The notes under the pieces are model-generated. The model had not been told where the DNA came from. It was given only the letters and a program-made list of their open reading frames with translations, and ran no database searches. A program made the translations under genes and the position numbers. A stretch of DNA of 63,969 bases, counting the filler, from Folioceros fuciformis (lineage: Eukaryota), in the NCBI GenBank assembly GCA_049999805.1. It is 3 parts of one record of this genome, joined end to end, with 100 filler letters (N's around TTAATTAATTAA, not from the genome) between each part and the next. Parts side by side here need not be neighbours in the genome. Positions count along the whole stretch, not along the records: positions 1 to 23,892 come from JBNGIO010006183.1; 2 more parts are not named here. One strand, given 5' to 3'. Below, one piece after another: positions 1-51,968 of the stretch. Positions within the stretch are counted from its first letter, which is position 1. Each line of letters starts with the position of its first letter.

Positions 1-3000
1 TTTTATTATACACCCCATATAATATATAATATATAATATAATACATACCTACATATGTATGTGCTGTACAGCTACAGCTAGGCAGTAATTTTGCAACCGT
101 ACGATATTAGTGGCAGCACACCACAGGCCCGGAGGGGGCGGGTGGTGGGGGCCGGTCCGGGCCGAGACGAGCCGGGCCAGGCCGGGCCGGGCCGGGCCGG
201 CGACCTGGGAGCTCCGCATGGCCTCCGGACTCTGGACTCTCGGGACTCAATCATTCATGTGCTCAGGCCAGTCCCAGTACCCAGTACCCAGTACCCCCGA
301 CTCCGCTCCGGTCATGTCCTGTCCTGTCCGATGCCACTACTGTGCTCCCTTTCCTTTCTAAATTTTCACTATTTATTGTTGTTATTATTATTATTGTGTT
401 GCTGTTTCCAGTTTTCCTGGTTTCATTATTGTGTGCTCCTCCTGTACAAACTCCCCCCCAACCCCCAAAGCCGGCCGGTGCACCCACCGCCCCCCCCAAT
501 GGGACTCCAGTCTACACCCAACACCTCTACTCCACCCAGTTTAACAACCTTTCACGTCTCCCCACAGTTACCTCCATAGCCTGTGCTTGTGCCTGTGCCT
601 GTGCCTTTGCCTGTGCCTTTGCCTGTGCCTGTGCCTTTGCCTTCGCCGGTCCTTCGCTTACCCCACGTGTCGGTCAACAAGTCGCTAATGCCAAACAATA
701 TCCGTACTGTATATGGTTTCCAATACTTATCCAAGAGCTGAGCTGGGCTGGGCAGGGCAGGGCAGGGGGCTAGGGCTGGGCTGGGCTGGGCTGGGCAAAA
801 GGCGCTCCGATGCCGGGTGTGGGCCCCTCGGTGCTTCCCCCCTCTGCAACATGCCGGTACACACACCATCATACCTCGCATCGTTTGCCGCGCTGCGCCG
901 CGCCGCGCCGCGTACACCCACCTACCAAACAACACGCTCCATCCACGCTCGCTCGCTCGCTGGCTGGCTCTCTCTTTTGCCTCCACTCCTAAAATCTACT
1001 CCGTTATTCAATAACTGGTGCACCACGCCATATCATTTTTCCACGCCCCGGGGGACCTACAACGCACGGTACGTCCACACACCACATACATACATACATA
1101 TGTACGTATGTATGTATGTATGTATGTATGTATGTATGTATGCAGTTACGAACCCGCCAGCCCAAGCCCAGGCCCGCCAGCCACCAGCCCGTTTCGCCTA
1201 CCACCATTTACACATATCGTTCCTCCTCGAAGCGGAGGCCCCATGTCTGTCATATATAAAATCGTGGTTACACCCCCCCTATAATATTTACTCCCGGGTG
1301 ACATGGGCCATGGAATGAATGAAAAAGTAGCAAAAGGAGTAGCATGAGAACCACGCCTAGCTATCATGATGCCGCCCAGGGGGTCTTTGTGTCATTCACA
1401 ATAAAGGCTGGCTTCCATTATATATATATCATCCTCCCATCATTCAAGCCCCTATCCAAACCCACTCAACCCATATGGATGGAATACTTCCGTACACTCT
1501 CTCTCTCTCTCTTTCTCTTAAACAATGTGTGTTCCGAGGAGGGGGCGGCGCTGCGCTCCTATCTCTCTCTCTCAAAACGTAATTTCTGTCTTCCATGTGC
1601 ATCATTCCATGCTTCCATGCTGAATATTACAAGCATCATGAAAAAAAGCGCCATCCCGATCTTCCTATCCCCTCTATTCCATAAGAGTACACCCACATGA
1701 GGCCCTTGAGGAGAGCAGAGCAGAGCATAGCAAAGCATAGCATAGCATAGCAGTCGTGACCATCACCACTCAACTCATGCTGATATTGATGCTGATGGCC
1801 ATGGCCACATGGCGATGACACTTCGCCACATGTATATATATATACCCCATATGATATGACCACCACAGGCACTATGCTGTGTACCCTGCTGTTGTCAGTC
1901 TTGTTCAATCAATATGCATGTTTATGATTGTGAAAATATATTTATTCCTACAACTAAATCCTTCCAATCGTCCCTCCCAATCATCCCCTTCCAATCCTCG
2001 CACTAGGCATGCTCCTTAAAAAACTGCCTTGTCTTGCCTTGCCTTGCCTTGCCTTATAAGCAATCTCCATGCTCCTGGCTGCTCCAATCAGGAGGATGTC
2101 GTGTCCCTTATCTCCAATCAAATATCTTGATAAGTCTACTCTACTACTTGTACTTTCTCGTTCCTTTTTATAGCACCACACCACAATTCTCTCTGCATCA
2201 ATCTTCTACTTCCATTTCCTATCGGCTCTCCCTAGAGTTCATCTCAATTCACGTAACTCAAACAAACATTCATGCACAAAATTATCTATGCTTCCATTAT
2301 CATCTTCACATAAAAACTTTCAACACCAGCTCCCAAGAGCACACAATGCTTCTTGCACAAGCCTTTACTCTACATGCCCAATGTATGTGTAGGCATCAGA
2401 TTCATTAATCAAGGAGGAAAAAGAAAGAAAGAGAGAAAAGCATCTAGTTAGGAATCTCTTTTTCTTTTTTGATCACTGTGCATTGCATTGCATTGCATTG
2501 CATTGCATTGCATTGCATTGCATTACATTGCATTGCCTTGCCTTGCCTTGCCTTGCCTTGCCCTGCTAGTGAAATTAAACTTAAACAATAACATCCATCT
2601 CTTAATGTGCCTAAAGTGTGTCCCTGTGTGTGTGTGCCTAAAGTGTGTCCATCTCCATCTATGTGTGTGTGTCTCAGATGGAATCAGATCTAATCATAGC
2701 GCGTGTGGTCCACGCAAGGATATCACCAATAATAAAAAGAAGGCATATTGATACAATGTTCTTCTTCTTTTGTTGGATGAGGATCTTGTGTTAATCAACA
2801 AATGATATTCCAAGATTATTGGAGTGTATGGATGTGGGAAGTTCCCCAAAAACCCACACACACCTAGCTTTTAAGATGCTGATCTAGACTTTACATGAAT
2901 GGTGAGATAAAATAATCAGAAAAATAAAAATAAATTAATAGGGTTATAAAATAAAGATAATATCCCCGAGAGTGAGCACTCCTCCGTAGCACACATTTCT

Positions 3001-4560
3001 AGTCGCCTGACACCACTCAAAGCAAATATTCAAGAATTATGAAATTGGATTCTCTGTAGAATCCCCCTTTTTCAGATTCTAAACAAAATATTCATGGAGT
3101 TAGGAGCTGGAAGATTCACACGGCTTGGATGGCAGCAGCGGGGGGAGAGCGCGCGGTGCTCAATTTATCATGACAAGCAGCAGGAAGCACAGATGCCAGT
3201 GGCCATTCTTCATAAGCAGCAGCAGCAGCAGCAGCAGCAGCCTGTAGGGATACGGCCCAGCCCGGTCTGGTCTGGTCTCGTCTGGTCTCGTCTGGTCCAT
3301 ACCAGTCCACTCCACTCCAGCCCACTCCACTCCAGCCCACTCCAGTTTGGCACGGGGGAAGGAAGACTTTGACCTGGTGGCTACCTCGGATTTCCACCCA
3401 CCCACCCAGCCAAGCCAAGCCTTGGAGCCAAGGCCAGGTCTGGCCTGGATGTTAGCCCTATTTTCTTTCCCCAAGGTCTGTACACGACACGCTTTTTGGT
3501 GTCACGGGAAGTGCAACGCAATGCCCCCCCGGTTCCAGCGAGCAGAGAAGAGGATAAATCCCGCTTCCCGCGGAGGACGTGCAACTTGGCAGGCAACGCC
3601 GCCCAGGACTCCAGGTTACGTGACGGGAACCCACATTCTCCCACCTTTGTCCTTCTTCTTGTCTCATTATTTTCTACGCTACGCTCCCATGACATCACTA
3701 CCGTATCTCCGCGTAAACACATATGTATGTACAGTACACACATACCTAATTACGTCCTATGCGACGGGCTGCGCTCCACTTCGGTCGGGGCCCGTTTTCG
3801 TTGGGATATACGGCATTTACCGAACCCAGCCCAGCCCAGCCTAGCCTGACCGAGCCGAGCACAGCCGAGCCGAGCCGAGCAGCCCGGTTTGTACATATAT
3901 GATGCATAAAAAAATATCACGAGGTGAAGCGACGAAATGACGCAGGCAGGGGTTACAAATGCCGATTATGGATTAGGCAGGAAGAGTACAGGATGTATGT
4001 GCCGAGTCAAGCCTTATCTTGATGTGGATCCGAGTGCGGTGGGAGACGAGGGCTGGACAGGGTCCGGAAGGATGGAGGAGGGCCCCGAGAGGGTTGGAAG
4101 TACAGCCCGGGGCCCTACCGCCCTGAGGCCCAGCTCGGTTCGGAACCCAGCCCCCGACGGAAGTTTAGGGTTAAGGGCCCAAGGGCCGCGTTTATGGGGA
4201 GGACAAGACATCAAAAAAAAAAAAAAAAAAAAATTGATGGCAGATGTGGCTGCCGTCATGGCGGGGCCACGTCTTGGTAGCCCGAGGCTCCGGGAACAGG
4301 ATGCCGGGCCAGCGTGGAGGGTAGTGGGCTTTGGGAGGTCCGGGCCGAACCCACGCCTCCCACACCCACTCCACCTCCGCCTCTCTTTCTCCCTTTCATG
4401 CCTTGCCCTGCCGGGTGCCCTGCCCTTCCCCTCGTCTCGCTCACGCCTCACCCAGCCTCACCCAGCCTCACCCAGCCTCTCCCCCTGCCCCGTCCCGCGG
4501 GCGTGGCCTGCTCGTCGCTGTGCAGTGAAGTGCTGTGCTGCGCTGTGCAGTGCTGCAGGC
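1..4560. repeat. Non-coding region dense in simple sequence repeats
   Basis: (GCCTGT/GCCTTT)n ~579-643; (GGGCT/GGGCA)n ~744-795; (ACAT)n then (ATGT)n ~1084-1142; (GCATT)n+(GCCTT)n ~2480-2562; (CAG)n ~3215-3240; poly-A ~4213-4232. ORFs here are low-complexity translations of the repeats. Confidence 0.85.
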
Positions 4561-5467
4561 AGGCGCCAGCACCAAAGCCAGCGTCCGCCTTCGGGCGCCA
4601 TCACCTCGAGTTGGTGAGTCGGCGAGCTTATCCATGACTTCGCGTCTGTGGCCGCGCTTTCTGCTGCACCGTCACCCGCGCCCTTGTCCTGTAGGCTCTC
4701 CTGCCTTGCCTTAAGACGGGCCCTTCCCCTCCCCTCTCTTGTCTCTTGCCTGTCTTCCTGCCTGCCACTGCCGCCTTCCCCGGCGCCTTCGCTTCTGCCT
4801 GCGCGCGCCCTTGCTTCACCTTCTTCTCGCGCATTGCAAGCTCCGCCTGCTCTACTCTCCTCGCTTCTGCCCTGCTCTACTCTTCGCCAATTGTGACCTC
4901 CTTCCCTCCCCTCCCCTCCGCCCTCCGCTGCCCTCCGTAATTCAGAAGGAAGGCCGGGGGTTTGGTCCATTAGAGTGCCGCCTCCAGATCTGGACTCAGC
5001 CCGGCACGGAAGCGTCTTCTCTCGGCGATAGATACTCATCACCTTCCGGAGGGGGAGAGCAGAGGAGTGGAGGCAAATTTGGGACAGGGTTTAGTAGTTT
5101 GTGGCTGCTCCGTTTCATGTGTTGGCCACCGGCTTGCGCCTTCGTCGCTGGTGGTGCAGGGGCCTATGGAGGACGGCTTCTGCTGACAGCACCCGTGTGG
5201 AAGTGGCGTTTGCCGGAGCTACGGCGGCCGGGCCTGTGACAGCCTTGTGTATGGAAAACGTCAACAGCCGACTCCACAGACTACAACGCAGCTCCTACAC
5301 CAAGCACTGCCCTCCTTGAGCGAGCGGCCGTGGATGAGGAGGAGGAGCGGCGGGGACTTGGCGCCACTGTACTTGCCTCTCGTGTAACTCGCTCGCCTGG
5401 GCTTCTTGATTCTTGGGTTCGCACCATCGTACCTTGGGGCGAGTTTGGCGTCACGTCTTGAAGCACA

Positions 5468-6703
5468 ATGTCGGTTGCTTATGCGTACGAGAACGGGTGG
5501 GACATTGGAGCAGGAGCCCGGGGCGGACATATGATGGTAGCCTCGCAGAGCCATGTGTGCGGAGGAGATGCGCCTACGTTCCGCTCTAAGCATCAGCAGG
5601 ACTCCATGATCCGGGGCTTCTCGGCCATATCCAAGTATATGCACTCCCAGCCCGCTCAGCCGGACTGCTGTAGCAAGCCCTCTCCTCCGTCTCCAGGCCC
5701 GTCCAGTCCGCCTTGCCTTTCTTCTCTGTCCGAAGACAGAATGAGCCCGCCCTCGTCTTCGCCTCCTCCGCACCTCTCCGGAGCCTCCTCTAGAATTGAG
5801 CCTGCCAATGCCGAAGCTCACCCTCAGTCTTCCCCCGGATCCGGTGCCACGTCTTCGGAAATGGCGTCCGATGTCACCGATCAGCCTTTTCTTGGACTTA
5901 GTCAACATGTGGACGACCACGCGGCGAGTGAAGCTCTTTTCATTGACACCCATGTTGAAGGTGATGAACCGCAGCAGCCAGGGGATGGAGCCCTCGTTCC
6001 TCAACGCTTCCCCACTCCGGCATCTTCAGCTTCCTCGCTTTCCTCTTCCATTGGAGAGGCCAGGGATGATAGCTCCTCCTCCTCTGAAGATGACAAGGAC
6101 ATGGAAGCCCAGTCCGCGTATCGTGGACCTCTTGAGCAGATGAGCGAACTCGAGTCTTCTCTCCCGATCAAGTAAGGGTTTCTTTCCCCTCTTCCACCAC
6201 CACCCACTCTTCCTTCCCCCTTCACCGTCCCTTCCCTGTTACACGCCATTCTACTTCCTCGCTCATGACACTGTGGAGTGCCAGTTCTTGGAAGTATCAC
6301 TAACGTACTCTTCCTTAATATTTGCAGAAGAGGTCTGTCACGCTATTTCAACGGAAAGTCTCGATCTTTTACGTCACTGGCAGATGCCTCCTCACTGTTG
6401 GATGTCAAGGAACTGGCCAAGGCCGAGAATCCCTTCAATCGCAAGAGAAAGATGTTTGGTGGTGGTCATCATCGCTGTTTCCCTCCCCTGCCTTCCGGTG
6501 CTGGAGTTTCTAAGAGGACCACTGCCACCAACCGAAGCAACCTGGCTTTATCCGTCTCTATCATTTCGGAAGTGGATCATGCTCCTCCCAGAGGCAGGCA
6601 AAGTAGTTCTGTCCCTCCAAGATCTCCTGCTCCTTCCAGGTCATTTTCGCTCACAGATCTGCCCGGGACAAGTGGCCTGTCGTCATCCTTTCGAGGGGCA
6701 TGA
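5468..6703 (+). CDS. OXS3: OXIDATIVE STRESS 3-like protein; 2 exons (5468-6171, 6328-6703)
   Basis: Spliced motif QSAYRGPLEQMSELESSLPIK|RGLSRYFNGKSRSFTSL...KELAKAENPFNRKRK is the OXS3 family signature. The GT (6172)...AG (6327) intron keeps the frame. Confidence 0.88.
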
Positions 6704-12009: not shown

Positions 12010-12489
12010 GTTTGCGCCCCGCTCTCTTTGGAATTGCACAGTTATGGTTACTCTGAGTTTCCTTTTAACTTTCCAGTTATGTATTCGGTAGTGGGATGGA
12101 AACGGGGAGGTAGGTGGCCTGATGATAAAGCCGCAGACCCCTCGCACTGGGGAAGGACTGTCCCGGCGGTGGCTGTGTGCTGGAATACCGGATTCGGATG
12201 GAGGGTAGGAGCAGGGTTCTGCACCTCGAATGGCCTTTCTCCATGATTTTCAATCGGTTCGGGGAGTGCATGCCCCGGCATGGGTGCATGGCGACGGAAC
12301 CTTCTACCCGTGTGGAATGAAACGGATATCTTACATAAGATGTAAAATTATGTATATCTATCTCGAAAAAAGAGGAAAGAAAAAGATGACAAAGGCGACG
12401 GGCCGACGAGGACTAATCTCATGGCGACCATATTTATAACGACCAACGGTACTAATCATATGAGACTTGAAAGGGTCTGTCTATCACTA

Positions 12490-13350
12490 GAGTCGCTAGT
12501 AGAGCTTCAATGTGCTCCCTATTGTTTCTTAAGTAGTGTTTGCCAACGTCCTTTATGGAGTGATGGAGATATAGAGAAACCCATAAACATTTCCTAAGGA
12601 ACCTAGAGAATGCCTTACATATGCCCTCATGGACTCAAATAGTAAGGGAAATGAAGGTATGCCCAATCTGCATGGGGTGTATTGTGGATCTTGGTTGATG
12701 TGTATCCCTCCTCCAACTAACTAGGGGATTAAGGAGGATCTACTCGCATATGAAGTCCTCCATAGGACAAAAAGCCACCTTCCTTGGCCCAAGAAAAAAA
12801 GGGTCTCCCATGACACATTGTGGATAGCAAAATATTGCCCTCCCACATGGAATCAAACTAGATTCATCCCTAAGTCGTTTAGAGGCACCCTACAATTCCA
12901 TGTCAAAAGAGAGCAAGCTTGGGAATAGATCAAATCAAGGCGAAACCTCATTATAATGGAGAATCTTATTGGTGCAATATCGATTCGGAAAGCCTAGATG
13001 CATAGTTGTGCCAAAAGCCAATGCATGAGCATAACATGAGGCAAGCTTGAATTGGTCAAGGAATAGAAGAGTCTCAAAAGAAAATGAGTTGCACTTGCTA
13101 ACATTTCTTCTCAAGAAGAGAAGCGTAAGGCCCACAAATCCTCATTTGAGAAAGTGATAAAAAGTAATGAATAGTAGCCCTTGCTTAGTCAAAAGAGAGT
13201 GACCCGTTTGAAACTTTAGGGACACGTGCAATGCCTAGAAATAAAAAGTGCCCTCCCCAACACCAAGGACAAAAGATTTTAATATGCAAAAAATTCTAAC
13301 AAGGAAGCAAGAAGCCAAGATCTAAGATGAGAGAGCCAAACTCCCAACTG
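12490..13350 (-). mobile_element. Degenerate 5'-truncated CRE-like non-LTR retrotransposon fragment (3' RLE region)
   Basis: Minus-strand translation, with stops and frameshifts, gives GSLALSS*ILASCFL, SFVLGVGEG, SLLEKK, WLLAQLCI*AFRI..MRFRLDL and QIGHTFISLTI*VHEG..FSRF. These are collinear with the C-terminal part of the element at 15233-18382. Confidence 0.8.
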
Positions 13351-13379
13351 CTGTGGACACCAAAACAAGGTGTGAAGTT

Positions 13380-14230
13380 GTATGCTATGTACTGCGGAAG
13401 TGTTGTCTTCTCAGTTTGGAAGTGCTTAAAATGAATTGGAGTAGCGGTACACATGGAATGTGCAAATTGCACCAAACTAGACCTTCAAGACTTTTACATA
13501 GCTTGGTCCAACATAGTACCCAAACCAATAACAATTGCTTACACAATGTCTCGTTTGTCCCCATTGAAATCGCCAACTTTCCTTAAAGCCTTATCCTCAT
13601 TTGTCATGTTCTTCTGAAATTATGCTCTTGCATATGAACTCGCCCAAGCTTTTCAGCATTTGCTACCACATTTTGGCGACTACTACAATAATCAGAGAAA
13701 CGTAATCCGTGTATAAGATTGTGAATTTTAGAAAAAGGCATATCATATTCCTCTTTGTATGTGAATAACTACCAAAAAACAATGAAAATGAACAACAACA
13801 ACCCAACACCGATAGATTGCCTCCCTAGACATAGATTGCATGAGTATCAAATGTAGCACTAGAAACATAACTATTCTCAAAGCAATGTCGAGTTTGTGTA
13901 ACTTATGCACATCACATAAAATGACTCTTTATTCTTGCCACTCTCAAGTGAGATGTATGTTTTGCTAGAGATCATGGGCATGATGAACTTGGTTCATGCA
14001 CGGCTGCTATCTACTCCGAAACCCAAGTGTTTTATGTTCACCTGCTTCAAAAAATTGTTGTGTTTTACCCCATTAATGCAAGTTACCTAGAAAGTATGGA
14101 CACTTACTTGCAAGTCACAGTCATATGGCTGCATAGTAAAGAAAAAACTTGCAACCATCCTAGATTTAGCATCGTAAAACATGTAGAGTTTAGATAAGCT
14201 AAATTGTCTTTCATTTGTAAATGATAATTG
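13380..14230 (-). mobile_element. Possible highly decayed DNA-transposon (hAT-like) relic
   Basis: Broken minus-strand frames contain LGFGVD and ILCDVHKL, loosely like the hAT GxGxDG and CxxH motifs. The sequence is AT-rich and lies between repeats. Confidence 0.25.
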
Positions 14231-14240
14231 TCTTTCATTT

Positions 14241-14460
14241 GGCAGTGGTGATACGGCGATGGTGAGCGTAGGGCAGTGGTGATGGAGAGTAGGGCAGTGG
14301 TGATACGGCGATGGTGAGCGTAGGGTGGTGGTATGGCATAGGTGTGATGGAGAGTAGGGCAGTGGTGATACGGCGATGGTGAGCGTAAGGTAGTGGTGAT
14401 GGAGAGTAGGGCGATGGTGATGAACGTGGAGCGTAGGGTGGTGGTATGGTATAGGTGTGT
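14241..14460. repeat. G-rich compound minisatellite
   Basis: Alternating units ggcagtggtgatacggcgatggtgagcgtag and ggcagtggtgatggagagtag, several copies. Confidence 0.85.
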
Positions 14461-14679
14461 GTGCAACTTTGCTATGCCATTGTGCGGCTACTAGGATTTC
14501 TAAGAGGTGCTCTTTAGGGGTATGGGCCTAGGGTTTCTAAGAGGTGTTCTTTGGGGGAAGAGTTTGGACGATGAAAAGTGATGTAGGGCAAGGCCATGTT
14601 CATTAGGGCTTTGGTTGTGTGTTTGTGTCCACGTGAGGAAGGTACCGAAAAATGGTATACCAATATGGTGGAGCAAGCA

Positions 14680-15170
14680 AGTAAGGTTTAGGGTTTAGCG
14701 GCAGGGCAAAGCGGAATGAGTTTGGTGTTTAGTAAAATGGCATAGTAGAATGACATTAGGGTTAAGTGGCATGGCAGAGCAACAAGGTTTATAGTTTACA
14801 AGCACAGCAGCAACAGAATAGATGGGGGAGAATGAACGTAGGGTTTAGGGGCATTGCGGAGAAAAATAGGTCTAGGGTTTAGCAACATGATGGAGCAAAA
14901 TAGGTTTAGGGTTTAGCCGCATGGCAGAGTGGAGTGGGTTTAGGGTGTAGCGACATGGTGGAGAAAAATGGATTAGGGTTTTTACCAGCATTATGGAGCA
15001 AAAATGGGTTTAGGGTTTAGTGGCATGGCAGAACTAAACAGGTTTAGGGTTTAGTCACACGATGGAGAAAAGTGGGTTCAGGGTTTTATAAACATTGTGG
15101 AGCAAAATGGGTCTAGGGTTGAGCGGCTTAGAGTAGAGCTTATGGAGGGCATTATAGGGTTATGGGTTAC
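14680..15170. repeat. ~34-bp degenerate minisatellite containing the plant telomere motif TTTAGGG
   Basis: Perfect TTTAGGG at 14687, 14844, 14905, 14939, 15009 and 15043; variants at ~14871, 14972, 15078 and 15112. Period ~34 bp; approximate consensus gcatggcagagcaaaatgggtttagggtttagcg. Confidence 0.85.
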
Positions 15171-15232
15171 AATGCAGAGTACAATTGTTTGGTTTTGATC
15201 GTTTTACAAGACTTTCTACATGCCTCTATCAC

Positions 15233-18200
15233 ATGGCGCGTAACACCCAGCCTTTACCTATCAAGAACACCCCTTGCTCAGTGTGTTTTCAACTTTGCTC
15301 CGGGGTCAAGGGGGTGAAATGCCATATTTGTCACAAACATAAGGACTTCGATAGGACCACTTGGGTGGCACAAGTGTGACTTGCTTCTTCTTTCGAACCA
15401 GCTGCCAATCCTCTTCTAATAGATCCTCTGCGGCCGTCCCCAGAGGCTTGGTTGTGGCTTCGAGGGTAATCTGATCACTAGTTGGCTCTTTTTCATGCTC
15501 GTTTTCCATGTCCTCGCCTCTTCCGACATCTCCCTAGGCGCCTACATGATGATATTCCCCTTGCTTATCATCTTCCCTTGGATTGCCTTACTCGGGACCC
15601 GAGGGATGAGAGTGCTTGGATTTTGTTCCTTTTCCTACCTAGATGGTGCCTTCGGCGCTCTAAGGGTGGTCTGTCAGGTCATAGAGGGGTGGCCTCTCGA
15701 CTTCGCCGTTTTCGATTCGGAGATTGGCAAGCTCTTTAGGAGGAGGATTTACAAGTAACAAAATTTCGATTGGAGTCAGCTAACGTTGACAAGGTGTGCC
15801 GTGACCCATTTAAAGTGAGTCTCAAGCGGTGTCTCATGTTGAGCAAGGATAGTGAATATGCTCGGGCTGCTAGAGCATTGCGCCTAGAGCTGGCTGCATC
15901 CACAACTGAGGACACCATTGCTGCACTTCGTGCCCTTCATCCAGAACCTCATGACACTATACCGCAACATCTTCTTGACCACATGGTCGAGCAGCCTTTT
16001 TGCTTAGATAGGGTTGTTTTTGGGCATGCACTCTCTTCTGCGCCGCGACTTTCTGCAGGGGATTTGTTTGGCACAGTTTATGACCATTTTCGAGATTATT
16101 TTTCTCCTGAGGATCCCTCAAGTGGTTTTTCGGAGCTTTATACACTAGCAGTTGTTGTGGCCAGGGGTGAAGTTCTCAATCGAATCTCTCAAGTTTTGGC
16201 GGCTAGTAGGCTACTTGCATTGGAAAAGCCCACCTCAGGAGTGCGCCCTATTGCTGTGGGGGAAGTATTTTTGCTCCTTATCAGCCGAAGTATCGCAATT
16301 CAACTTCATGAGTACTTCCAAGCGCATCTTGCACCCCACCAATTTGGGATTGCTACCCCAAGTGGGTGTGAATCTGCCACTCTCGGCATCCAGGCTACCC
16401 TTGAGTTACATCCTCACTAGGTAACTTTGCAGGTAGATATTGAGAATGCTTTCAACACCATCTCTAGGGTCGCCATCTTCTCAGAGCTCAAGAGTGCAGG
16501 AGGTCAATTGGCAAGTCTTATCCCTTTTGTTCGCTCCTTCCATGTCTCGCCATCCAAGCTCTACTACCAACACGGCCCAACTATTGAGGTGGTCTCAGTT
16601 TTTGATTCAACAATAGGCACAAGGCAAAGGGATCCGCTTGGGGCTGCTCTTTTTGCAATAGCGCATTTTCGTGCGTTGTCCTCTATTGCCTTAGCAGTTC
16701 GGGAATGCCTTTTTTCTTCCATGGCTGATGATACTCATATTCTTGGGCAAGGAGTCACAATCATAGCAGCATTTGATTTCTTCTCATCAGAGCTCTCCAA
16801 GGTGGGGTTGCGGGTCAAGCTATCTAAATGCAGCGTTTGGTCCCCTTCAAGCATCACTCCCCCCCTTCAATATTTGGGGGGGGATATCACCCACTCGCAG
16901 GGACTTCGAGTCTTGGGTGTGCCTGTCGTACCTCCTGATTTTGTTCATAGGTTTGTGAATGAAGCATTGGATGAAGATTTGGCTCATAGCATGGACCTCT
17001 CACAAATCGGTGATCCTCAGATTGCGTTTGGTATCTTTTCTTCTTGTTTTGCACGACGACTAGGTTACCTCACTAGAATTGTTGCACCTTCTCCATTTTT
17101 CTTATCAAGTCTCAGGAAGTTTGATAATCAAGTTATGCAGGCTCTTGGGAACATCATAGGTCCGGGCACCTTCGAGTGTGCTGTCGGTGATTTGGCTCGG
17201 AAGCAAGCTTCTTTGCCAATCGCCTTTGGAGGGGTTGGTCTTTTGGCCATGGAGGCCTCTGCCCCAGTTGCCTTTCTCGGCAACTGGGCCCTCTCAGCTC
17301 CAATTTTGGCCTCTCGCTTTTTGCTACAAGATTCCCCTGTTCTTGAAAGTTTTATTTCAGGTGTTGAGGAGGGCGTTTTCTCTTTACAGGGATCTCTAAG
17401 GCAAGCGAGGGATTCTCTACCTTTGGAGGCTCGCGAGGCTCTACCTCCTTTCACCTCCTTTTCTAGGGAAGGGTTGAAGGGTCTCCAAGCCTCCCTCCTA
17501 GAAAAGAAATATGGCTAAGCACTAAGAGCCCTTCTTTCAGACTCATCCATCCCTAAGTCTTCTTGAGCTCGTATTTGATCTTGTTTAGGTAAAGGAGCGA
17601 GCTCTTGGCTTTAAGCTCGACCTTGCATCCAGGCATTTTGAATCGCACCAGCAACTTTCGCCACCGCAATGAGATTTCGCTTAGGTTTGGCCCACCCCTT
17701 GGCTTTTTCTCTCTCTACATGCAGTTGTGGGGTTGCCATTGTCGATACAGGGTCCCATTTGGCACGTTGTCCCGTTGGGGGGCACCGCATTGCCACTCAT
17801 GATGCAGTTCAAGATGTCATGTTCTCAATGGCTAGGGAGTGTGGGTTTCTTCCGTATAGGGAGCGTCCATGTACTTTGCGCAATGGGGTTTCACTTAGAG
17901 CCGACTTTTTCTTCACTAGGGGAGAACAGGTTTGTGTTGCTAATGTGGTTGTTACGGATCCCACTAGGGATTCGATTTGTGAGCACGTCATCATCAACCC
18001 CCCTGGTTGGGCAGCAGAGGGTTGTGCAAGTGCCAAAGTCCATAAGTATTATCCCTTGCAAGACGGACATACTTTCATCCCCCTTGCTCTTGAGGCTCAT
18101 GGAGCTATGAGCAAGGACTTTTCAAGGTTTATCTAGGAGTGCGCCAAGGTTTATTAGAGCAATAGGAATGGTGTTCTCCCTCTTTCCTCTGTGGTGGTCT

Positions 18201-18382
18201 TCTTTCGACAACGTGTATCCATTACTTTGCAACGAGCATTGGCCAATGCAGTTTTTAGAACAGCAACAAGTGCAGGTCAAGCGGCTTCTTCGCAAGCGGC
18301 TTCTTCGGCGTCGGTGGTAGGTAGGCCTTTTGTTATTCCACATCATGACATTTTAGGAGCAGTACGTAGTTTTAGAAAATGA
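15233..18382 (+). mobile_element. Full-length single-ORF non-LTR retrotransposon of RLE type (CRE-like), inactivated by in-frame stops
   Basis: ORF-track pieces at 15185, 15482, 15770, 16427, 17669 and 18191 share one frame. N-terminal C2H2 finger CSVC-x12-H-x4-H. RT motifs GVRPIAVGE, QFGI, QVDIENAFN, GTRQRDPL, SMADD, LGVP, LPIAFGGVGL. C-terminal RFRLG, CSC-x8-H-x3-C knuckle, THD, RAD, KVHKY, FIPLALE. No APE domain, no LTRs. Confidence 0.92.
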
Positions 18383-18604
18383 TCTTCGCAGGGGAGAGTA
18401 CCTCTTTTTGCCTTTGGCCCTAATGGGGTTGTTCCTCCATCTTTGGAGTAGATGGGACTTTCCATCTCTTTTTCAATCATAGAAAATACTAATTTTTTTG
18501 TAAATGATATAGATATCTAGACATACTAAAATTAATGTCTTATAAGGCATATCATTAATATGATCCCACATTTACCAAAAAGACACAAATTTAAGTTGTA
18601 GCAA

Positions 18605-21600
18605 CTATTCCTCATTAGGGCCCTCCTCTACATCAAGCTTTTGAGGCAATTTAACAAGCTCGTATTCAAGCTGTTGAGGCATTAGTGATTTTCTCCAACC
18701 AGTTGCACCTGGTTGGGGAACCAAAATGGATCTTCTAGTGGGGGATGGATTAGATAACTTTCTAGGTATTGATTGATTAAAGGATGCCCTGTTGCTAGAA
18801 TTGCTAGAACCACCAAATGTATCCATAGAGCTTCCGTTGTTGAATGAACTACGAACACCATTAAAACCGTCTTGCATCATTGCGACAGATGGCTTTGAAA
18901 GATTAGATAATATTTCGCTTGCCTTTTCCGAACCTTCTTGTATAACTTGAATAGATTTTCTAGCTATTTGTGATACGGTTGTCATTGGTGATGCATTTAC
19001 TCCTACATTATATACAAAATATTGATTAATAAGAGCAAAATACTTAATAAATTAAACTTCAAGAGTTGTTAAACATACGGAAAACCTACATCTCAAAACT
19101 TTATTACAAAAGAAGAGATGAAAATCCATCTACCATCGAAAGAAAGTGGGCAATCCAATAAAGAGCACGTACCAAAACTAGCATCCGCTAAATCGATATC
19201 ATCTCCGCTTCGTTGCCATACTTTAAATGCTATAATTGAAATAATTGCAAGCAAAGTTGCAGACCCTATGCTAGATGCAATTATAATGATATTTTTTTTT
19301 GAATTGGTAATACTTCCTGGTAATGAGGAATCGCCTGGGTTTACAAAGGCAGTCGCTAATTTCTGGGTAACATGTAAATCAGCAACTTTTCTACAAGTTT
19401 CGTTAATGTTTGAAACCCATCCTATAGCACAATAACTACAATCAATGCCGGCGTATCCTGCAGGAAAATCAAAGACACAAGTTGAGATTAATTGATATTT
19501 ACAAAGATATTATTTTATATAAAAAGTTATTGAATGAAGAAGGAGCTATACCCAAGAAACAATCACATTGTCCACTTGCATCTAGACAGTGTCCATTTCC
19601 TGCACATGCAATTCCTGCTTTTGGACCTATCGTTGGTACTGGACATGGGTTGGGTACGTAAGGACAATCTTTTAAACAACAATATTTTTTGTCCGAGCTC
19701 GCACTATTTCCTTGCTTATCACATCTTTCCCCCTTTTCGCACATTCCATTTCCACAAATACCAAATCTTTGAATATTGATTACATCCGTAATTTGAATCG
19801 CATCAAACATCTGTACCATACTCACTTCTAAGAGATATAAAATAAGGATGTTATTTTTTTAATTTTAATAAAAAATATCAGAACAATAATTTAGAATTTA
19901 GAGTTCAAATTTTACATCATTATCTTCAGACTCTAGAAATGTTGCTTGCATAAGTGAAGATCGTGCGTCATTTTTTTTCACATGCATGTTTCTCAAAAAA
20001 GTCTAGAAAATCAAAATAATGAAATAAGTAAATAATATATTACAATACCTAATTCAATATCATAGTCTCATTTCACACATTAGACTCTATGAAATAGTCT
20101 TATTTTTTTTAGAACAACAAGATATAAAACCCATCTACCCTAAACTAAGATCATAGAAATCCATTCTTGAAGCACTTATACAAAAATTTGTATGGTAGGT
20201 ATATGTTTAGTAGATTGCTCTTAGACTTTGAAGTATGATACTATGAACTAGTAAGTAAAACGCACAATATTGTACCAGTGGAACTGGAAGAATTGTCAAT
20301 TTAAAAACTCCAATAGACAAGGATGTTCCACCATTCATGCAGTTTTCCATATCTTCACTATTCGTTGTACAATCCATGCTCAAGCTATTGGAAATTTGCA
20401 TTGAGTTCAACAACACAGCAGATGGCTGAACTCCTAATCGAGAGGATACCTAACAGTTTATCCAAACATAATTTAGAAAAAGGATAAAAAAAATATGAGT
20501 TAATCAAGTGGGATACTGTAGATGTGAAGAAAATTAATATCCATAAACTACATACGCTTTGCACAAAAGATATCATGAAGTCTTTCCAAATAGAGGAGCC
20601 GTTTACGTGGAGAGACATAGTGGCATTTATAAATTCTGTAAGAATTGTCACATTTGTTCCACAACTGGTACCATCTCCGTTGCAAATATGACATTCATCT
20701 AGGACACCACTCTTGCAACAAATTCCCTTTTCATCCCGAACAGTAGGGCAACATGTGTTTTGTGAATCCAGAGACCTACGTCAATGCAAACAATTAACTT
20801 GCTTCTATTGTGGCTAATCAATCTTGAAGCAAACCAATGAATGATATCATCTTGTACTAAAGGCCTGAGAGGAAACTCATACTTAGATTTCCCGTCACAT
20901 ACACCACAAGCATCTAAATTCCCGCTTTCGCAACAAAATCCATTCTACAAGAGTTGGTGAGGTAGAATGCATCAGCATGCTTCGTCACAAATCATACATG
21001 TGTGCATTGGGTTTTAGAGGAACATAGCCGAAGAACATTGATACCTGATCAAGTTTTGAGGCATTGTTTGCACAACAATGTTGATATGCATCAATGGTTT
21101 TAAATGGACAGCAACTGACATTTCCATTTGGAAGGTAACCCATTGGTTTTCCCTTACACACTATAGGTCTATCGCAGTATTGTCCTTCCCATTGTGAGGA
21201 GCAAGTACATTGCCCTGCCTGCAAAGTCAAACCCATGCCCCATATTCAATTCATAAAAGAAAACAAAATCTCATCTTAAACTAATTTTCATTCATGATAA
21301 GACTTTCTAAAGTTGATGGGTTTTCATAGAACTTTAACTTACTACACATTTTCCATTTCCAGAACAATTATTGTAGTTGCAATTGTCACAATTGGGATCA
21401 ACTTGTTCGCAGTTGGTTGATGAGGCTGGTTTTAACAATGGATCACAAAGTGATTCAATAACAGAGTCTCCTTCTCCATCAACGCACTAGCAATGTATTC
21501 ACACAATAGTATAATTGTCAATTAGAGTAAATAATCTTATTCAATAAAGTATAAATTATTGATTGTCTTACCTCAACCACACGGTAAACAGTAGCATTGC

Positions 21601-23892: not shown

Positions 23893-23992
23893 NNNNNNNN
23901 NNNNNNNNNNNNNNNNNNNNNNNNNNNNNNNNNNNNTTAATTAATTAANNNNNNNNNNNNNNNNNNNNNNNNNNNNNNNNNNNNNNNNNNNN
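23893..23992. other. Assembly gap with artificial linker
   Basis: 44 N + TTAATTAATTAA + 44 N = 100 bp; the linker gives stops in all six frames. Confidence 0.97.
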
Positions 23993-28232: not shown

Positions 28233-28305
28233 CGCCGCCCGGGGGGCTCGAACCCCCGACCACAAGGTTAAGAGCCTTGCGCTCTACCGACTGAGCTAGG
28301 GCGGC
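28233..28305 (-). tRNA. tRNA-Lys(CTT)
   Basis: GCCGCCCTAGCTCAGTCGGTAGAGCGCAAGGCTCTTAACCTTGTGGTCGGGGGTTCGAGCCCCCCGGGCGGCG folds as a cloverleaf with A and B boxes and anticodon CTT. CAA lies just upstream and a T5 run ~35 nt downstream. Confidence 0.96.
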
Positions 28306-28899
28306 TTGCTCGACGCTTTGTCCCATTTCCAGATCAAGGCAAAGAAACCAGAGACGCCCGTAAGGATCCATCTGCGCCACGTGCAGCGCCTGGCGATCTT
28401 CCCCTTCCCATTCAGTGATGTGAACCCCTCTACGAGTGCCGCCTCCGGTTTCAAAGAACCGCTTTCACTTGGGGCGGCCGTTTCTGTCGCTCACGATCAG
28501 AAATGCTGGTCCAGTCCGTAAGCCTGTTCCACCCACACCGTCGAGTGTCTACCGCTGGGCCGGTTCGCTGCATTGCCTCAGCTCTAGGTTCTATAGCTTT
28601 TGTTAGGCCCCGTCACGATCCAGCCGGGCGTGCTCAGGTCCAAATTGCGGTTCCGTCAGCAGCTGCTGCCCAGGTCAATCTCATCCTGAGCCTGTGATTG
28701 TGACATACGAGCAGGTGGGACAAGGAGTCGGAGAAGGTACTGTACGCTGGGATGTGACCCAACATCCTCACCTTTGCTGTAATGTCAAAAAGTGTCACCA
28801 AGTAACACAAAGAGAGTGTCTTGTCAGAGGAAACCAAGGAACTCGTCCATGGGCTTCACGCCATTGGCACCCACGGGACTGCTGAACAAAGATATCTAG

Positions 28900-30958
28900 A
28901 GATGCTTCTCATCTCCAACCAAAAAACTAAGCACCAGACCGCCCTGGTCTGTCCACCAGCTTTGCCCTGGTTGCCTTCATGCCCTGATCGCCTTTCACCT
29001 CCTCTGCACCTCATGTGCCTGTTCCAACATTTGCACACTGATGTATATGTTTGTCATCAGCACATATGCCGCGGCGTCCTTCTCTAGTTTCATTGCTTCG
29101 TTGAAAGCATAGCGTCCCGCCTTCACGTTACTCCCCTTTTGACAAACACCAACAGCGTGTGTCAAACTGCACCATCAGGCAATACAGGCATTGATCTTGC
29201 CAAAGCTAAAACTAGTGCCTGATGCAGATGTCCTTCTCGACCTACGAGATCCACCATACATGTGTAATGCTCCTCTGTTGGAGGGACGCCAGACAACCTC
29301 ATAGCCTCAAAGTCCTCCCACCCCCTCTCCACTAGACCCGCGTGGCTGCAAACTCGGAGTACGCTAAGGAATGTGATGCTGTCTGGCACTATGCCTTCCC
29401 GCGTCATTCTCTGAACCAAGCGAAATGCTTCGTCACACTCTCCTTGACAGGTGTAGCCTGCAGTCAAAGCATTCCAGGTGACAATATTTGCCTTGGGCAG
29501 TGCATCAACCATGCTCCCGGACTCCCCGTACATGTTAATCAAACTGCCGGCCACGTTTGTACACGCCTGAAGTAGGCACATGAATGTCATGGAGTTGGGT
29601 GTAGTCATTCCTTCATCCTGCATAGCACAGTAGGGACGAAGGGATTCCTGCCCCATGCCCTGCTGGGAATATCCAGCTATCATGGCAGTCCAAGTCACCA
29701 CATCTTTTTCACGAAGTCCATCAAACGCAGTTTCAGCACTTTCCAGGCTGCCACACTTGGCATACATATTCACCAAACTGCTGGCAACAAATACATCAGA
29801 TTCGTACCCTTAATCCCTAATCTGAGCACGAAGCTGCTTCCCCTTGCCTAAAGCTGAAATCCCTCAACTGGCATCTGCCTGCACGAGGCACACAAATGTC
29901 ACAGAATTTGGTACAAGCATGCCCTTTTCTAGCATAGCACTGTAGAGATCAAAAGCCTCCTTGCCCTTCTGGGAATATCCTGATATCATGGCAGTCCATG
30001 TCACCACATTCTTCTGACCAACTGCATCAACCACTCTCCGGGCATCTCCCAAGCTGCCACACTTTGCATCCATGTTCACCAAACTGTTACCTATAAACAC
30101 TCCAGCTTTAAAGCCTTGGTCTCTTACCTGTGCATGAAGAAGATTGCCCTTCTCCAGGGCTGGAGGGCCAACACTTGCACATGCCTGCAGGATGCAGACG
30201 AATGTCACAGGATTGGGTAGGACCAAACCTTCTTCTTGCATCGCATGGTACAGACGGAGGGCTTCATGCCCTACTGGGAATGCCCTGCTACCATAGCATT
30301 CCACATCACCACATCTTTCTTGCCAAGTCCATCAAACACTCTCTTGGCGTCTTCTAAGCTGCCACACTTTGCATAGCTGTCCACCAAGCAACTCGAAAGT
30401 AACAGATTCGGCTTGACACCACTGGCCAGCACGTCAGCATGCAGTTGCTGCCCAGGTTTCAAATAAGACCCCCGTGCACAAGCCTGAAGGGCTGCCACAA
30501 GCACATTGGCCATCTGGCTTCACACCGGACCTTCTCATTCGATGATAAAACTGTAGAGCCTGCTTGTCTTGTCCGTGTTGTACAAGCTCGGAAATTATAG
30601 CAGACCACGTGAAAGCATCCGGCTGAGCTATGGCTTCGAACACGTCCCCCGCGTCTTGCAACATGCCATGAGCAGCATACATTCGCAGGATGTGGAAGCC
30701 CAGGGACGTATCTGACTGGTACCCCTTCCTCACTGTAAAAGAACGAACGTGGCTCCACCGAACAACATCCTTGTTGGCCACACATTTCTTCAGAACAGTG
30801 TAAAAGAGGGTTCCGGAAATGCAACGGCCCAACTGCACAAGAACGTCCAAGGCCTCAACAGCCTGGGTAAGATGCTCCTCATGACACAGCTTGCTCACGG
30901 TTTCAGCCGATACGCCCATGTCGTGAACAGCAGGGCCGCCAGGGTCAGGATCATCCAC
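28900..30958 (-). pseudogene. PLS-class PPR protein pseudogene with E domain and PG(WW) box
   Basis: Repeated motifs LVNMYAKCGSL, DVVTWTAMI.GY and P..VTFVC.LQAC; E-domain YVLMTNIY; PGQSWW at 28953-28970. Frameshifts near 30510, 30275 and 29130; in-frame TGA at 29864 and 29162. Confidence 0.9.
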
Positions 30959-32595
30959 GATCCATGGTCAAATGCATGATGAGCATATATGATACCCATA
31001 TCCGGAGCAAGCTGCCCATCGATCCGACCTGGCTTGGACACGTTCAACCACACCCGAAAATCAGGTTAAAAGAGTGGCTTCGCATTTCGCCTGCTATCCT
31101 GCTTGCCCAACCAAAATCTCTCCTTGCTGCCACCCTAAAAGAATCGTCTCCAGCCACATCCGCCCTTACACTGGTTGGCTGTCTTCCACAAGTGCTGCAT
31201 CTCCTGACATGGCTGCGTGCAAATTCTTTGTTCCTTGATTCCCGTCGAGCGAAAGCCTGGCCTACAGTACTCGGTAACCCACCAGCCATGGCTCGCAGGA
31301 GCACGTCGCGTTCTCGGGATCCAGGCTGACAGACCCACGCAGACGACGTCTCGTCTCGTAGTGGAAGGTTGCAGGCTTTCCACATTATGCACGATGCATG
31401 ACTTCGCCGTGCGGGATAGGATACAGCATGTATGTATATGTATATATTGACACAAAGACTCTCTCCAGCCGTGCATCTTTATGTATGTCTATGGTCACAT
31501 ACCGGCATCTTGCCATTCCGAACATGGTGCATTTATAAAATATACATATGGCCAGTTAATAAATTTATTTGATAATATATATTCAAAATTCTCTAGATTA
31601 CTTTTTTTCTCTAATCTTATAATTAAATTATTTAAATTTATTTTAAAAAAACTATCTATGAGAGATACATAGAGATACTAAGAGCGAACCCCAAAGCCCA
31701 ATGACTATCAATAGCACCACCTAAAATATTTAAAAGATCTACTACTAAAGCTGCTTAGGCAACTTCTCTTACTAAATATATTATATTAGCAATATATTAT
31801 AAATATATTATATTATATTATATTATATTATATTATATAATAATATTATTTCAATGCCTTGATAAAGATCCCTCCTCATGGGACTTATAAAAATTCGTCC
31901 ATGCCCGGAGTTCCGTGTGGAAGGACCGTAACCATCTTCGTCCTTGTCAAGCAAACCGGTGGAGGGTTTCGTCCAGTCGGTGCGTATATACTATGTGTGC
32001 ATGTAGATGCCAGAGCCCCGTTTCACGCGACAGCAACCGTTATGATAATTCCAGGGTTCCTATGAGGTGTAAAGTAGATGACAGCGGAAGCTGTGGCGGA
32101 CGGTGGGAACGTGGCTCGTTTGGCGAATGCTTAAATACTGTTCTGTGTCTCCCGCGGGACAAAGTTGACTCAATCTACTGCCGGAATGCGCGAACCGAAC
32201 TTCGCGTTACGGCCGCGCCCGTTTTTCATATTTTGATCGTTTCCGCGCTTCGACGATCCCTAGGATCAGATTTTCCAGCTGTGTGCCAGTCGAGGACGCG
32301 CTTAGTGCTGCCTCCACTAAGCCCCAGTGCGCGGGCTCGGGTCTCCCACCAGGAGCAGCGCATGAATCCGCCTCTCAACGCTGCTGCCTGCCTGTGGGAC
32401 GCCCGCCAGCCCTGGATCGCTTCCAGGTCGAGCTGCGGGCTGGGGCAATGGAAATGGGAGGGTGCTGGACTGGAGCTGGTCACGGATCTGGTAGCGGGAA
32501 TTGGAGATGATCAGATCGCGTAGGTGGAGGTCCGGATCACGCTGAGTTAGGAAACTCGTGTGCGGATTGGGGACCAGGTTGCAAAGGCCCAGACA

Positions 32596-36740: not shown

Positions 36741-36840
36741 NNNNNNNNNNNNNNNNNNNNNNNNNNNNNNNNNNNNNNNNNNNNTTAATTAATTAANNNN
36801 NNNNNNNNNNNNNNNNNNNNNNNNNNNNNNNNNNNNNNNN
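36741..36840. other. Assembly gap with artificial linker
   Basis: 44 N + TTAATTAATTAA + 44 N. Confidence 0.97.
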
Positions 36841-51568: not shown

Positions 51569-51968
51569 NNNNNNNNNNNNNNNNNNNNNNNNNNNNNNNN
51601 NNNNNNNNNNNNNNNNNNNNNNNNNNNNNNNNNNNNNNNNNNNNNNNNNNNNNNNNNNNNNNNNNNNNNNNNNNNNNNNNNNNNNNNNNNNNNNNNNNNN
51701 NNNNNNNNNNNNNNNNNNNNNNNNNNNNNNNNNNNNNNNNNNNNNNNNNNNNNNNNNNNNNNNNNNNNNNNNNNNNNNNNNNNNNNNNNNNNNNNNNNNN
51801 NNNNNNNNNNNNNNNNNNNNNNNNNNNNNNNNNNNNNNNNNNNNNNNNNNNNNNNNNNNNNNNNNNNNNNNNNNNNNNNNNNNNNNNNNNNNNNNNNNNN
51901 NNNNNNNNNNNNNNNNNNNNNNNNNNNNNNNNNNNNNNNNNNNNNNNNNNNNNNNNNNNNNNNNNNNN
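51569..51968. other. Assembly gap (400 N)
   Basis: Run of N. Confidence 0.99.

Follow-up and report, generated by a model that had tools for sequence, protein, structure and literature searches.

Positions 14227 to 18496 of the window (the whole stretch of Folioceros fuciformis DNA that was analyzed, 63,969 nucleotides) are best read, with a probability of roughly 0.85, as a single insertion, complete but dead through mutation, of a non-LTR retrotransposon that has one ORF, is present in many copies, and is of the restriction-like endonuclease (RLE) type; its lineage is found in a liverwort, a lycophyte, and streptophyte algae. This reading builds directly on the domain set, homology to R2, a target site duplication (TSD), a 5'-to-3' rise in depth, differing 3' flanks, and single-copy flanks. 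The mechanistic type is already known, and the element is an ordinary dead transposon copy of the RLE-LINE mechanism class. As originally predicted, the element is a non-LTR retrotransposon of full length, now decayed, that encodes a restriction-like endonuclease, and an APE domain was absent by Pfam, profile, and fold. The land-plant setting was likewise confirmed: the host carries plant genes (PPR, MYB-CC LHEQLE, and Phi_1/EXORDIUM), and named relatives were found in a liverwort and a lycophyte.

Reading frame and protein domains

Translation of 15233 to 18382 (plus strand) yielded an ORF of 1049 codons and a terminal TGA, with no frameshift and with 12 internal stops (residues 49, 79, 83, 169, 396, 762, 778, 782, 794, 803, 968, and 975). 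The remaining two plus-strand frames of the same interval contained 28 and 69 stops, and sequences made by shuffling the same bases (n = 1000) averaged 45.7 stops, with a minimum of 29, compared with the 12 observed in the ORF frame. Six stop-free pieces of at least 40 amino acids (15158-15379, 15482-15739, 15740-16420, 16421-17518, 17642-18136, and 18158-18382) share this one frame, in agreement with the prediction of six fragments forming an ORF of about 1050 codons. It had also been proposed that the ancestral ORF could be rebuilt by reverting 12 codons; the number of stops was correct, but those codons are not the whole of the damage. In this copy, R replaces G466 in the QGDPL motif, a residue that hardly varies elsewhere, and N replaces the conserved D904 of the RLE. 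Because these two strongly conserved catalytic-motif residues are changed, the 12 stops are not the sole lesions.

The predicted domain order (C2H2 finger, RT, CCHC, RLE) was supported by Pfam, homologue alignments, and an R2 profile match. The N-terminal C2H2-like zinc finger (C-x2-C-x12-H-x4-H; residues 15 to 36, 15275-15340, plus strand) was identified from the alignment together with the structural model. Its cysteines and first histidine align in four of six close relatives (P0007, P0009, P0164, and P0165), and the predicted structure places a beta-hairpin and a helix at residues 12 to 35; Pfam matches to this finger were weak only. The reverse transcriptase core (residues 331 to 563, 16223-16921, plus strand) matched Pfam RVT_1 with an E value of 2.5e-11. 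Downstream on the same strand, a CCHC knuckle (C830/C832/H842/C846, 17720-17770) was located by homologue alignment and aligned to the R2 CCHC, and the restriction-like endonuclease (residues 856 to 957, 17798-18103, with N at the conserved D904) was located by conservation and the R2 profile match. Across 33 aligned homologues, the columns for C830, C832, H842, C846, H856, E877, D891, D904, and K935 were invariant or at least 90% conserved.

When the ORF and eight relatives, intact ones included, were searched against Pfam, RVT_1 alone scored above threshold; there was no match to RNase H or Myb, and none to the APE family Exo_endo_phos (E ≤ 1 in the ORF, E ≤ 0.1 in the relatives). The predicted model contains helices at residues 70 to 160, a region with no Pfam Myb match in the ORF or in the eight relatives. 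The features of an RLE-type element are present: a LINE-type RT, a C-terminal CCHC with a PD-(D/E)XK-like endonuclease, no APE, and the footprints of target-primed reverse transcription.

Homology to R2

A family profile was compared with PDB sequences, and R2 proteins matched with E values of 7.4e-46 to 9.6e-26, each over two stretches. For 9nl3_A (R2), these stretches were the RT (i-E 2.4e-33) and the CCHC plus RLE (i-E 1.2e-08; profile stretch 773 to 927). L1 ORF2p matched at about 4e-18, an E value about 28 orders of magnitude poorer than that of R2, and over one stretch corresponding to the RT only. With its match to L1 ORF2p confined to the RT and with no APE, the element lacks the marks of L1/RTE membership. 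Among 162 other proteins collected, 72 gave one continuous match from the RT through the RLE. The predicted model (pLDDT 85.9, pTM 0.85) resembled R2 over its whole length at a sequence identity of about 14 to 16%; Foldseek ranks 1 to 7 were R2 chains (E 2e-23 to 4e-18), with L1 ORF2p next. To our knowledge, R2 is the sole RLE LINE with solved structures, and thus R2-clade membership does not follow from this best match.

Boundaries of the insertion

The insertion was delimited by a 13-bp TSD with copies at 14214-14226 (left) and 18497-18509 (right), an exact match on the plus strand. This 13-mer is the longest word common to 14100-14245 and 18480-18630, and a length of 13 was reached in 1 of 2000 shuffles. 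The resulting element, 14227 to 18496 (4270 bp), exceeds the 15233-18382 span first described. At the 5' junction, 15 nt (14227-14241, plus strand) repeat flank sequence located just upstream, with a shared 16-mer at 14202 and 14226; this repeat may be a small target duplication or filler. On the other side, minus-strand ORFs adjoin the 3' flank from 18605 onward.

The 5' leader consists of about 1 kb of tandem repeats with TTTAGGG-like motifs, on the same strand as the ORF. A G-rich tandem repeat of 117 bp (1.9 copies, 14241-14459; TRF period 117, 88% matches) is followed by about ten degenerate monomers of about 34 bp (14680-15154; TRF period 34 and monomer listing), each beginning with TAGGGTTTAG, a motif resembling the plant telomere repeat or telobox. 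With up to two mismatches allowed, GGTTTAGGGTTTAG matched at 10 places in the window, of which 7 fall in the 14680-15154 array, compared with 0.32 expected. Between the array and the ORF, position 15135 was covered by nine contigs of the public assembly X1 and positions 15175-15176 by ten. Since 9 to 10 contigs span this interval, the leader is multicopy too.

The 3' UTR (18383-18496, plus strand, about 110 nt) has a hairpin at 18450-18467, seen in the RNA fold, and no poly(A). Other copies diverge at 18488-18490, where the loose ends behind 18488, 18489, and 18490 numbered 35, 19, and 15 contigs in X1 and 47, 21, and 13 in X2. A related family carries a resembling GATGG-N6-CCATC motif close to its 3' end; folding of the whole 3' UTR was no better than that of shuffled sequences (z = -0.49).

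Copy number and target choice

Contigs of public assemblies from the same organism (X1 to X4) were matched to the window (2844, 3304, 1482, and 20 contigs, respectively; X4 is guessed to be RNA), and their depths were summed; this depth is not equal to copy number. Depth was 8 to 14 on the flanks and 219 to 4137 (X1) or 318 to 6160 (X2) within 14243-18555. In the bin starting at 14243, it jumped from roughly 11 to roughly 318. Between the 5' end of the ORF and the 3' end, depth rose about 8-fold, which is what 5' truncation predicts. The family is high-copy in F. fuciformis, and many copies are probably 5'-truncated. In X3, the 5' arrays were deeper (496 to 718) than the ORF (78 to 482), and the arrays may therefore occur outside the element too.

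Possible target specificity had been suggested, and this was contradicted by the data: the 13-bp TSD lies in single-copy DNA, and other copies run into different 3' flanks. Consensus agreement among copies beyond the 3' end was just 0.43 to 0.55 among the best-supported loose ends (1615 more exist), and in a related family on metagenome contigs, 13 different 3' flanks were counted by eye among 24 loci. Because 3' flanks vary among copies and the flanks here are single-copy, we read the family as not site-specific. The loose-end consensus was AT-rich, frequently with a T-run at its start, so there may be a loose sequence preference. Insertion looks nonspecific or at most AT-biased, with no single repeated target, as judged from contig loose ends. 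An Rfam search over the window found no rRNA, and the RNA gene nearest to the insertion was a tRNA at 28233. With single-copy flanks and no rRNA by Rfam in the window, the insertion is not of the R2 type in 28S rDNA; with single-copy flanks, disagreeing 3' continuations, and a TSD in unique DNA, it does not match the CRE pattern of entry into one repeated target.

Relatives and lineage

The named relatives were unannotated proteins of Riccia fluitans (a liverwort; 43 to 49% identity, fragments), Diphasiastrum complanatum (a lycophyte; 42%), Klebsormidium nitens (39%), and Closterium spp. In a 91-sequence tree without named CRE, NeSL, R4, or HERO references, all 14 of the 14 named proteins and the Folioceros ORF fell into one clade of 26 sequences (SH-like support of 0.93). 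A search of the ESM Atlas with a stop-free ORF piece returned only "Streptophyta" RT clusters, which we treat as a lead. Protein searches by word index returned 4, 23, and 0 matches, with no named LINE clade among them and a fish hypothetical protein as the sole organism name; cluster look-ups for the deeper branches likewise yielded no names. The family may already be catalogued in Repbase/Dfam.

Alternative explanations

Membership in the CRE clade (kin of CRE1/2, SLACS, CZAR, MoTeR, and Cnl1), with site-specific and perhaps telomere-associated insertion and with the upstream TTTAGGG-like repeats as a target remnant, would account for a single ORF with one N-terminal finger, RT, CCHC, and RLE, as well as for the same-strand motifs that cluster immediately 5' of the ORF. 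However, the arrays lie within the TSD and therefore arrived with the element; the telomere-like words are pieces of the monomers of about 34 bp, not telomeric arrays, and the best double repeat, TTTAGGGTTTAGGG, is present only with a mismatch. Single-copy depth on both flanks, the adjoining minus-strand ORFs, and the disagreement among 3' continuations of other copies also argue against it. Nor does the order of finger, RT, CCHC, and RLE define CRE, since Utopia/NeSL (in the excerpted text of PMC4640811) and R2 have the same layout. We consider the CRE explanation highly improbable.

There is a small but real chance that the tandem repeats of 14241-15154 form a satellite in their own right, such as an interstitial telomere-like repeat, beside which the element landed or which it prefers. 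The greater depth of the arrays in X3 would fit, as would the occurrence of the motif array just once in the window and the lack of a clear cluster of TTTAGGG-like motifs upstream of the ORFs of relatives (15 loci on metagenome contigs), but the TSD encloses arrays and ORF as a single insertion. Depth rises from the 14243 bin, close to where the array begins (14241), and remains high, uninterrupted, as far as the ORF; the 9 to 10 contigs that span 15135-15176 are different ones, and ORF and array share a strand. Dualen was originally discovered in a green alga. A further candidate is an element of the Dualen/RandI type, with both APE and RLE, from which the APE has been lost, or else some lineage that falls beyond the classical RLE clades. 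Although Dualen carries both endonucleases according to the excerpt of PMC4640811, only about 200 to 330 residues precede the RT here, and they contain the finger and not an APE; the Pfam searches for Exo_endo_phos and RNase H described above, intact relatives included, and the whole-length fold match to R2 make this origin barely credible.

Comparison with known systems

Like R2 (R2Bm, R2Tg, and R2Pm; PDB 8gh6, 9dou, 9nl3, and 9nl2), the element encodes, in one ORF, a zinc finger at the N terminus, an RT, a CCHC, and an RLE at the C terminus, and it presumably uses target-primed reverse transcription; R2 is its best profile and fold match among solved structures, the RLE stretch included. Unlike R2, which inserts in 28S rDNA, the Folioceros family occupies single-copy DNA with variable flanks; Pfam gave no Myb match here. 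CRE elements have a single ORF with an N-terminal finger, and HERO is mainly an animal clade. By description, the family resembles the CRE clade (CRE1/2, SLACS, CZAR, MoTeR, and Cnl1) in being RLE-type with that ORF and finger, and HERO in nonspecific insertion. The excerpted text of PMC4640811 describes CRE members as mostly target-specific, whereas the Folioceros family has no target specificity that we could see, and names HERO as the one RLE clade said to include many nonspecific families. The same excerpt gives NeSL/Utopia elements one to three N-terminal fingers, an RT, and a C-terminal finger plus RLE, much as here; unlike Utopia, which targets U2 snRNA genes, and NeSL, which targets spliced-leader genes, the Folioceros insertion has no RNA gene at its site. 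Plant L1 and RTE LINEs are also land-plant non-LTR retrotransposons with 5' truncation and TSDs, but they have an APE and poly(A) or (GTT)n tails (PMC9033089, in excerpt), in contrast to the RLE, the lack of an APE, and the lack of poly(A) seen here.

Proposed mechanism

The mechanism is modeled on R2, and we infer every enzymatic step. A full-length RNA would be made from the repeat-rich 5' leader, with the telobox-like monomers of about 34 bp possibly acting as promoter. The ORF protein would bind the transcript that encodes it, close to the 3' end, and its N-terminal finger may bind DNA. The RLE would then nick the target DNA, from which the RT would extend along the RNA template, in target-primed reverse transcription. 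The 13-bp duplication would come from a staggered cut of the second strand, and incomplete copying would leave many 5'-truncated copies.

Implications

In the excerpted text of a 2022 review of land-plant transposons (PMC9033089), L1 and RTE are the only LINEs named, and the excerpt of one liverwort genome paper (PMC11735767) does not report LINE classes at all. Our literature queries, several of which were ranked by plant terms only, turned up no account of RLE LINEs from land plants, and a query combining "restriction-like endonuclease" with "land plant" returned nothing relevant by title and abstract. As a tentative extension, at odds well below even, the family may represent an ancient RLE-LINE lineage, perhaps limited to streptophytes and maybe absent from seed plants, that persisted from Klebsormidium- and Closterium-like algae into liverworts and lycophytes. 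It would be high-copy here, without a fixed target, driven by its own internal array of telobox-like (TTTAGGG) monomers, and outside the L1/RTE-only statement of that review. An abundant plant RLE family whose relatives occur in two streptophyte algal classes as well as in a liverwort and a lycophyte would show that an older endonuclease type survived the transition to land, that RLE LINEs can persist without a safe-harbor target, and that plant repeat annotation misses them. It would also supply plant-native relatives of R2 proteins, which are now in use for gene insertion in plants (PMC13580325, in excerpt).

CpG depletion was not distinctive in the element (0.52, versus 0.43 to 0.61 in five coding stretches of the window). 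A 5'-truncated relative lies at 12578-13345 of the window.

A damaged single-frame ORF of the RLE type

The original prediction had joined six ORF fragments into one frame, ordered as a zinc finger, reverse transcriptase (RT), CCHC knuckle, and restriction-like endonuclease (RLE). Translation of window positions 15233 to 18382 (+) upheld the single frame: 1049 codons and a terminal TGA were interrupted by 12 internal stops and no frameshifts, leaving six stop-free pieces of at least 40 aa. The remaining two plus-strand frames held 28 and 69 stops, and the 12 stops were far below those of shuffled bases of this span (n = 1000; mean, 45.7; minimum, 29). The window ORF has R at residue 466, where homologues have the nearly invariant G466 of the QGDPL motif, and N at the conserved D904; therefore, this copy is damaged beyond its 12 stops.

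A Pfam scan of the window ORF gave RVT_1 (residues 331 to 563; E = 2.5e-11) as the only above-threshold family, and APE (the other LINE endonuclease type), RNase H, and Myb families had no Pfam match in the window ORF or eight relatives. HMMER searches with the ORF against 1.84 billion representatives returned 9597 proteins at E ≤ 1e-3, of which 473 reached E ≤ 1e-30, with identities of only 33 to 37% in the best long matches. Single-stretch matches from upstream of the RT core to past residue 940 were present in 72 of the 162 other proteins collected, indicating a family architecture of RT joined to the C-terminal domain. Across 33 aligned homologues, the CCHC residues (C830, C832, H842, and C846) and, following them, H856, E877, D891, D904, and K935 were invariant or at least 90% conserved. 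The cysteines and first histidine of the N-terminal finger (C-x2-C-x12-H-x4-H) aligned in four of six close relatives; of the other two, one is without an N terminus and one aligned poorly.

The 33-sequence alignment was searched as a profile against PDB sequences. R2 proteins were the closest matches (9nl3_A, 7.4e-46; 9dou_A, 2e-45; 9nl2_A, 3.6e-32; 8gh6_A [R2Bm], 4.5e-30; 8ibw_C, 9.6e-26), each matched over two stretches, which in 9nl3_A were RT (i-E, 2.4e-33) and the CCHC-plus-RLE region (i-E, 1.2e-08). In contrast, human L1 ORF2p matched more weakly and in RT only (E, about 4e-18 to 9e-17). An AlphaFold model built from the same alignment was confident (mean pLDDT, 85.9; pTM, 0.85), and Foldseek against PDB ranked R2 chains 1 to 7 (E, 2.1e-23 to 4.1e-18; TM, 0.46 to 0.61), followed by L1 ORF2p. 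Profile and predicted fold thus place the element in the RLE type, not the APE type; because the solved structures of RLE LINEs are all from R2, these results fix the type and not the clade. The finger, RVT_1, and the conserved C-terminal residues lie in the predicted domain order.

Limits of the insertion and copies elsewhere in the genome

An exact 13-bp word at 14214 to 14226 and 18497 to 18509 is the longest common to both flanks, a length attained in 1 of 2000 shuffles. It is read as the target-site duplication (TSD) bounding a 4270-bp insertion (14227 to 18496), which makes the element larger than the predicted span of 15233 to 18382. Sequence separating the TSD from the first array at the 5' junction repeats a 16-nt word from the upstream flank (14202 to 14241); small junction duplications are known at LINE 5' ends. 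About 110 nt follow the ORF stop, with no poly(A) and a short hairpin at 18450 to 18467. The hairpin motif, GATGG-N6-CCATC, lies ~20 to 35 nt before the 3' end and is common to a related metagenome-contig family (L003 to L080) with protein identity to the element of only 35 to 40%. It could be an RNA mark recognized by RT; the stem is conserved in sequence and thus offers no covariation to test.

Logan contigs from four sequencing runs of the same organism (X1, 2844 placed; X2, 3304; X3, 1482; X4, 20) were mapped onto window positions 12200 to 19000. Summed contig depth, which is not copy number, was 8 to 14 in the flank bins of both X1 and X2, 318 and 374, respectively, at 14243 to 14469, about 500 and about 640 to 1000 at the ORF 5' end, 4137 and 5661 at 18329 to 18555, and about 9 in each from 18556 onward. 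This shows that the element is a member of a multicopy family. By summed depth, the 3' part is represented ~8 times better than the 5' part, the pattern given by 5' truncation. Copies differ mainly by transitions that replace C or G: X1 had 152 C>T and 139 G>A changes against 90 A>G and 77 T>C, and 3 to 17 of each transversion.

Two arrays lie upstream of the ORF inside the insertion: a 117-bp-period repeat of 1.9 copies (14241 to 14459) and about ten degenerate ~34-bp monomers, each opening with TAGGGTTTAG. With up to two mismatches, GGTTTAGGGTTTAG had 10 matches in the window (expected, 0.32), 7 of them in the ~34-bp array. An ORF scan saw no second ORF in the leader. Between arrays and ATG, 9 X1 contigs span 15135 and 10 span 15175 to 15176, indicating that the leader is multicopy and continuous with the ORF; against the arrays being element leader, they are deeper than the ORF in X3. 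The TTTAGGG-like words are parts of the element's own leader and not a telomeric target. Telobox motifs act in plant promoters, and a promoter role is proposed for these words.

Insertion target and clade

The original prediction had suggested target specificity, which is contradicted by the insertion sites. The DNA around the window copy is single copy; a minus-strand ORF ends at 18605, ~100 bp from the insertion, and the only Rfam gene in the window, a tRNA, is 10 kb away. Among the loose ends listed, contigs diverged from the window after 18488, 18489, and 18490 (35, 19, and 15 in X1; 47, 21, and 13 in X2) into AT-rich sequence with a consensus agreement of only 0.43 to 0.55, indicating that 3' flanks vary among copies; the majority (1615) lie beyond those listed, a point against our reading. 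Plant-like, AT-rich metagenome contigs contain a related family, also decayed (70 to 78% identity between copies), that likewise ends at a single point; by eye, its 24 loci had 13 different 3' flanks. Two metagenome-contig relatives, L002 and L006, appear intact, with frames of 1086 and 1069 aa free of stops, about 35% identity, and a GC content of about 0.58; each has a ~450-nt leader and a ~95-nt 3' UTR that ends in a short (ATTGTT)3-4 tail, and the flanks beyond differ. We conclude that insertion is aimed at no single repeated target; a loose preference for AT or T runs is possible.

The RLE clades number five in the available excerpt of PMC4640811, which describes CRE, R2, R4, and NeSL as mostly target specific, unlike this element, and HERO as having many nonspecific families, the closest behavior by description only. 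The domain layout had been taken to define early clades such as CRE; the same excerpt gives Utopia the layout ZF-RT-ZF-RLE, so it does not define CRE. Of the predicted full-length CRE-like RLE retrotransposon in a plant, the RLE type and plant host stand, whereas the CRE label is unproven.

Host and related lineages

Here, a plant genome carries a LINE of the RLE type. The LINEs of land plants are assigned to L1 and RTE in the excerpted text of a 2022 review (PMC9033089), and a literature search for a restriction-like endonuclease in land plants gave nothing relevant, judged by title and abstract. Such an element is uncommon within the searchable plant literature, although its mechanism is of an already known kind.

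Host genes in the window (PPR repeats, a MYB-CC LHEQLE domain, and a Phi_1/EXORDIUM domain) fit a land plant, though a streptophyte alga is also compatible. The named relatives of the ORF, all hypothetical proteins, come from Riccia fluitans (five fragment clusters, 43 to 49% identity), Diphasiastrum complanatum (42%), Klebsormidium nitens (39%), and several Closterium strains. A FastTree tree was built from 91 sequences and 414 columns, after 1 of 92 was dropped for covering 35 residues of the region. It grouped the window ORF and all 14 named proteins in a single 26-member clade (SH-like, 0.93); the remaining 65 sequences have no organism assigned, and clade exclusivity is not readable from the tree. 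The window ORF adjoins Diphasiastrum (0.90), near Riccia. As a lead only, ESM Atlas look-alikes of a stop-free ORF piece were RT clusters, most commonly from Streptophyta.

A PPR gene or pseudogene at 28634 to 30967 (−), split over several frames, has several PPR repeats and a tail at 28995 to 29174 that we take to be E-motif-like; a tRNA (28233 to 28305, −) lies directly downstream. Of the N runs (assembly gaps or masked; 23893 to 23992, 36741 to 36840, and 51569 to 51968), the largest breaks a Phi_1/EXORDIUM-like ORF. A second related RLE LINE fragment, 5' truncated and much more decayed, with frameshifts and stops, lies at 12578 to 13345 (−) and covers C-terminal residues ~683 to 973 at about 34 to 37% aa identity; its depth of only about twice the flank indicates a different family, low copy or older.
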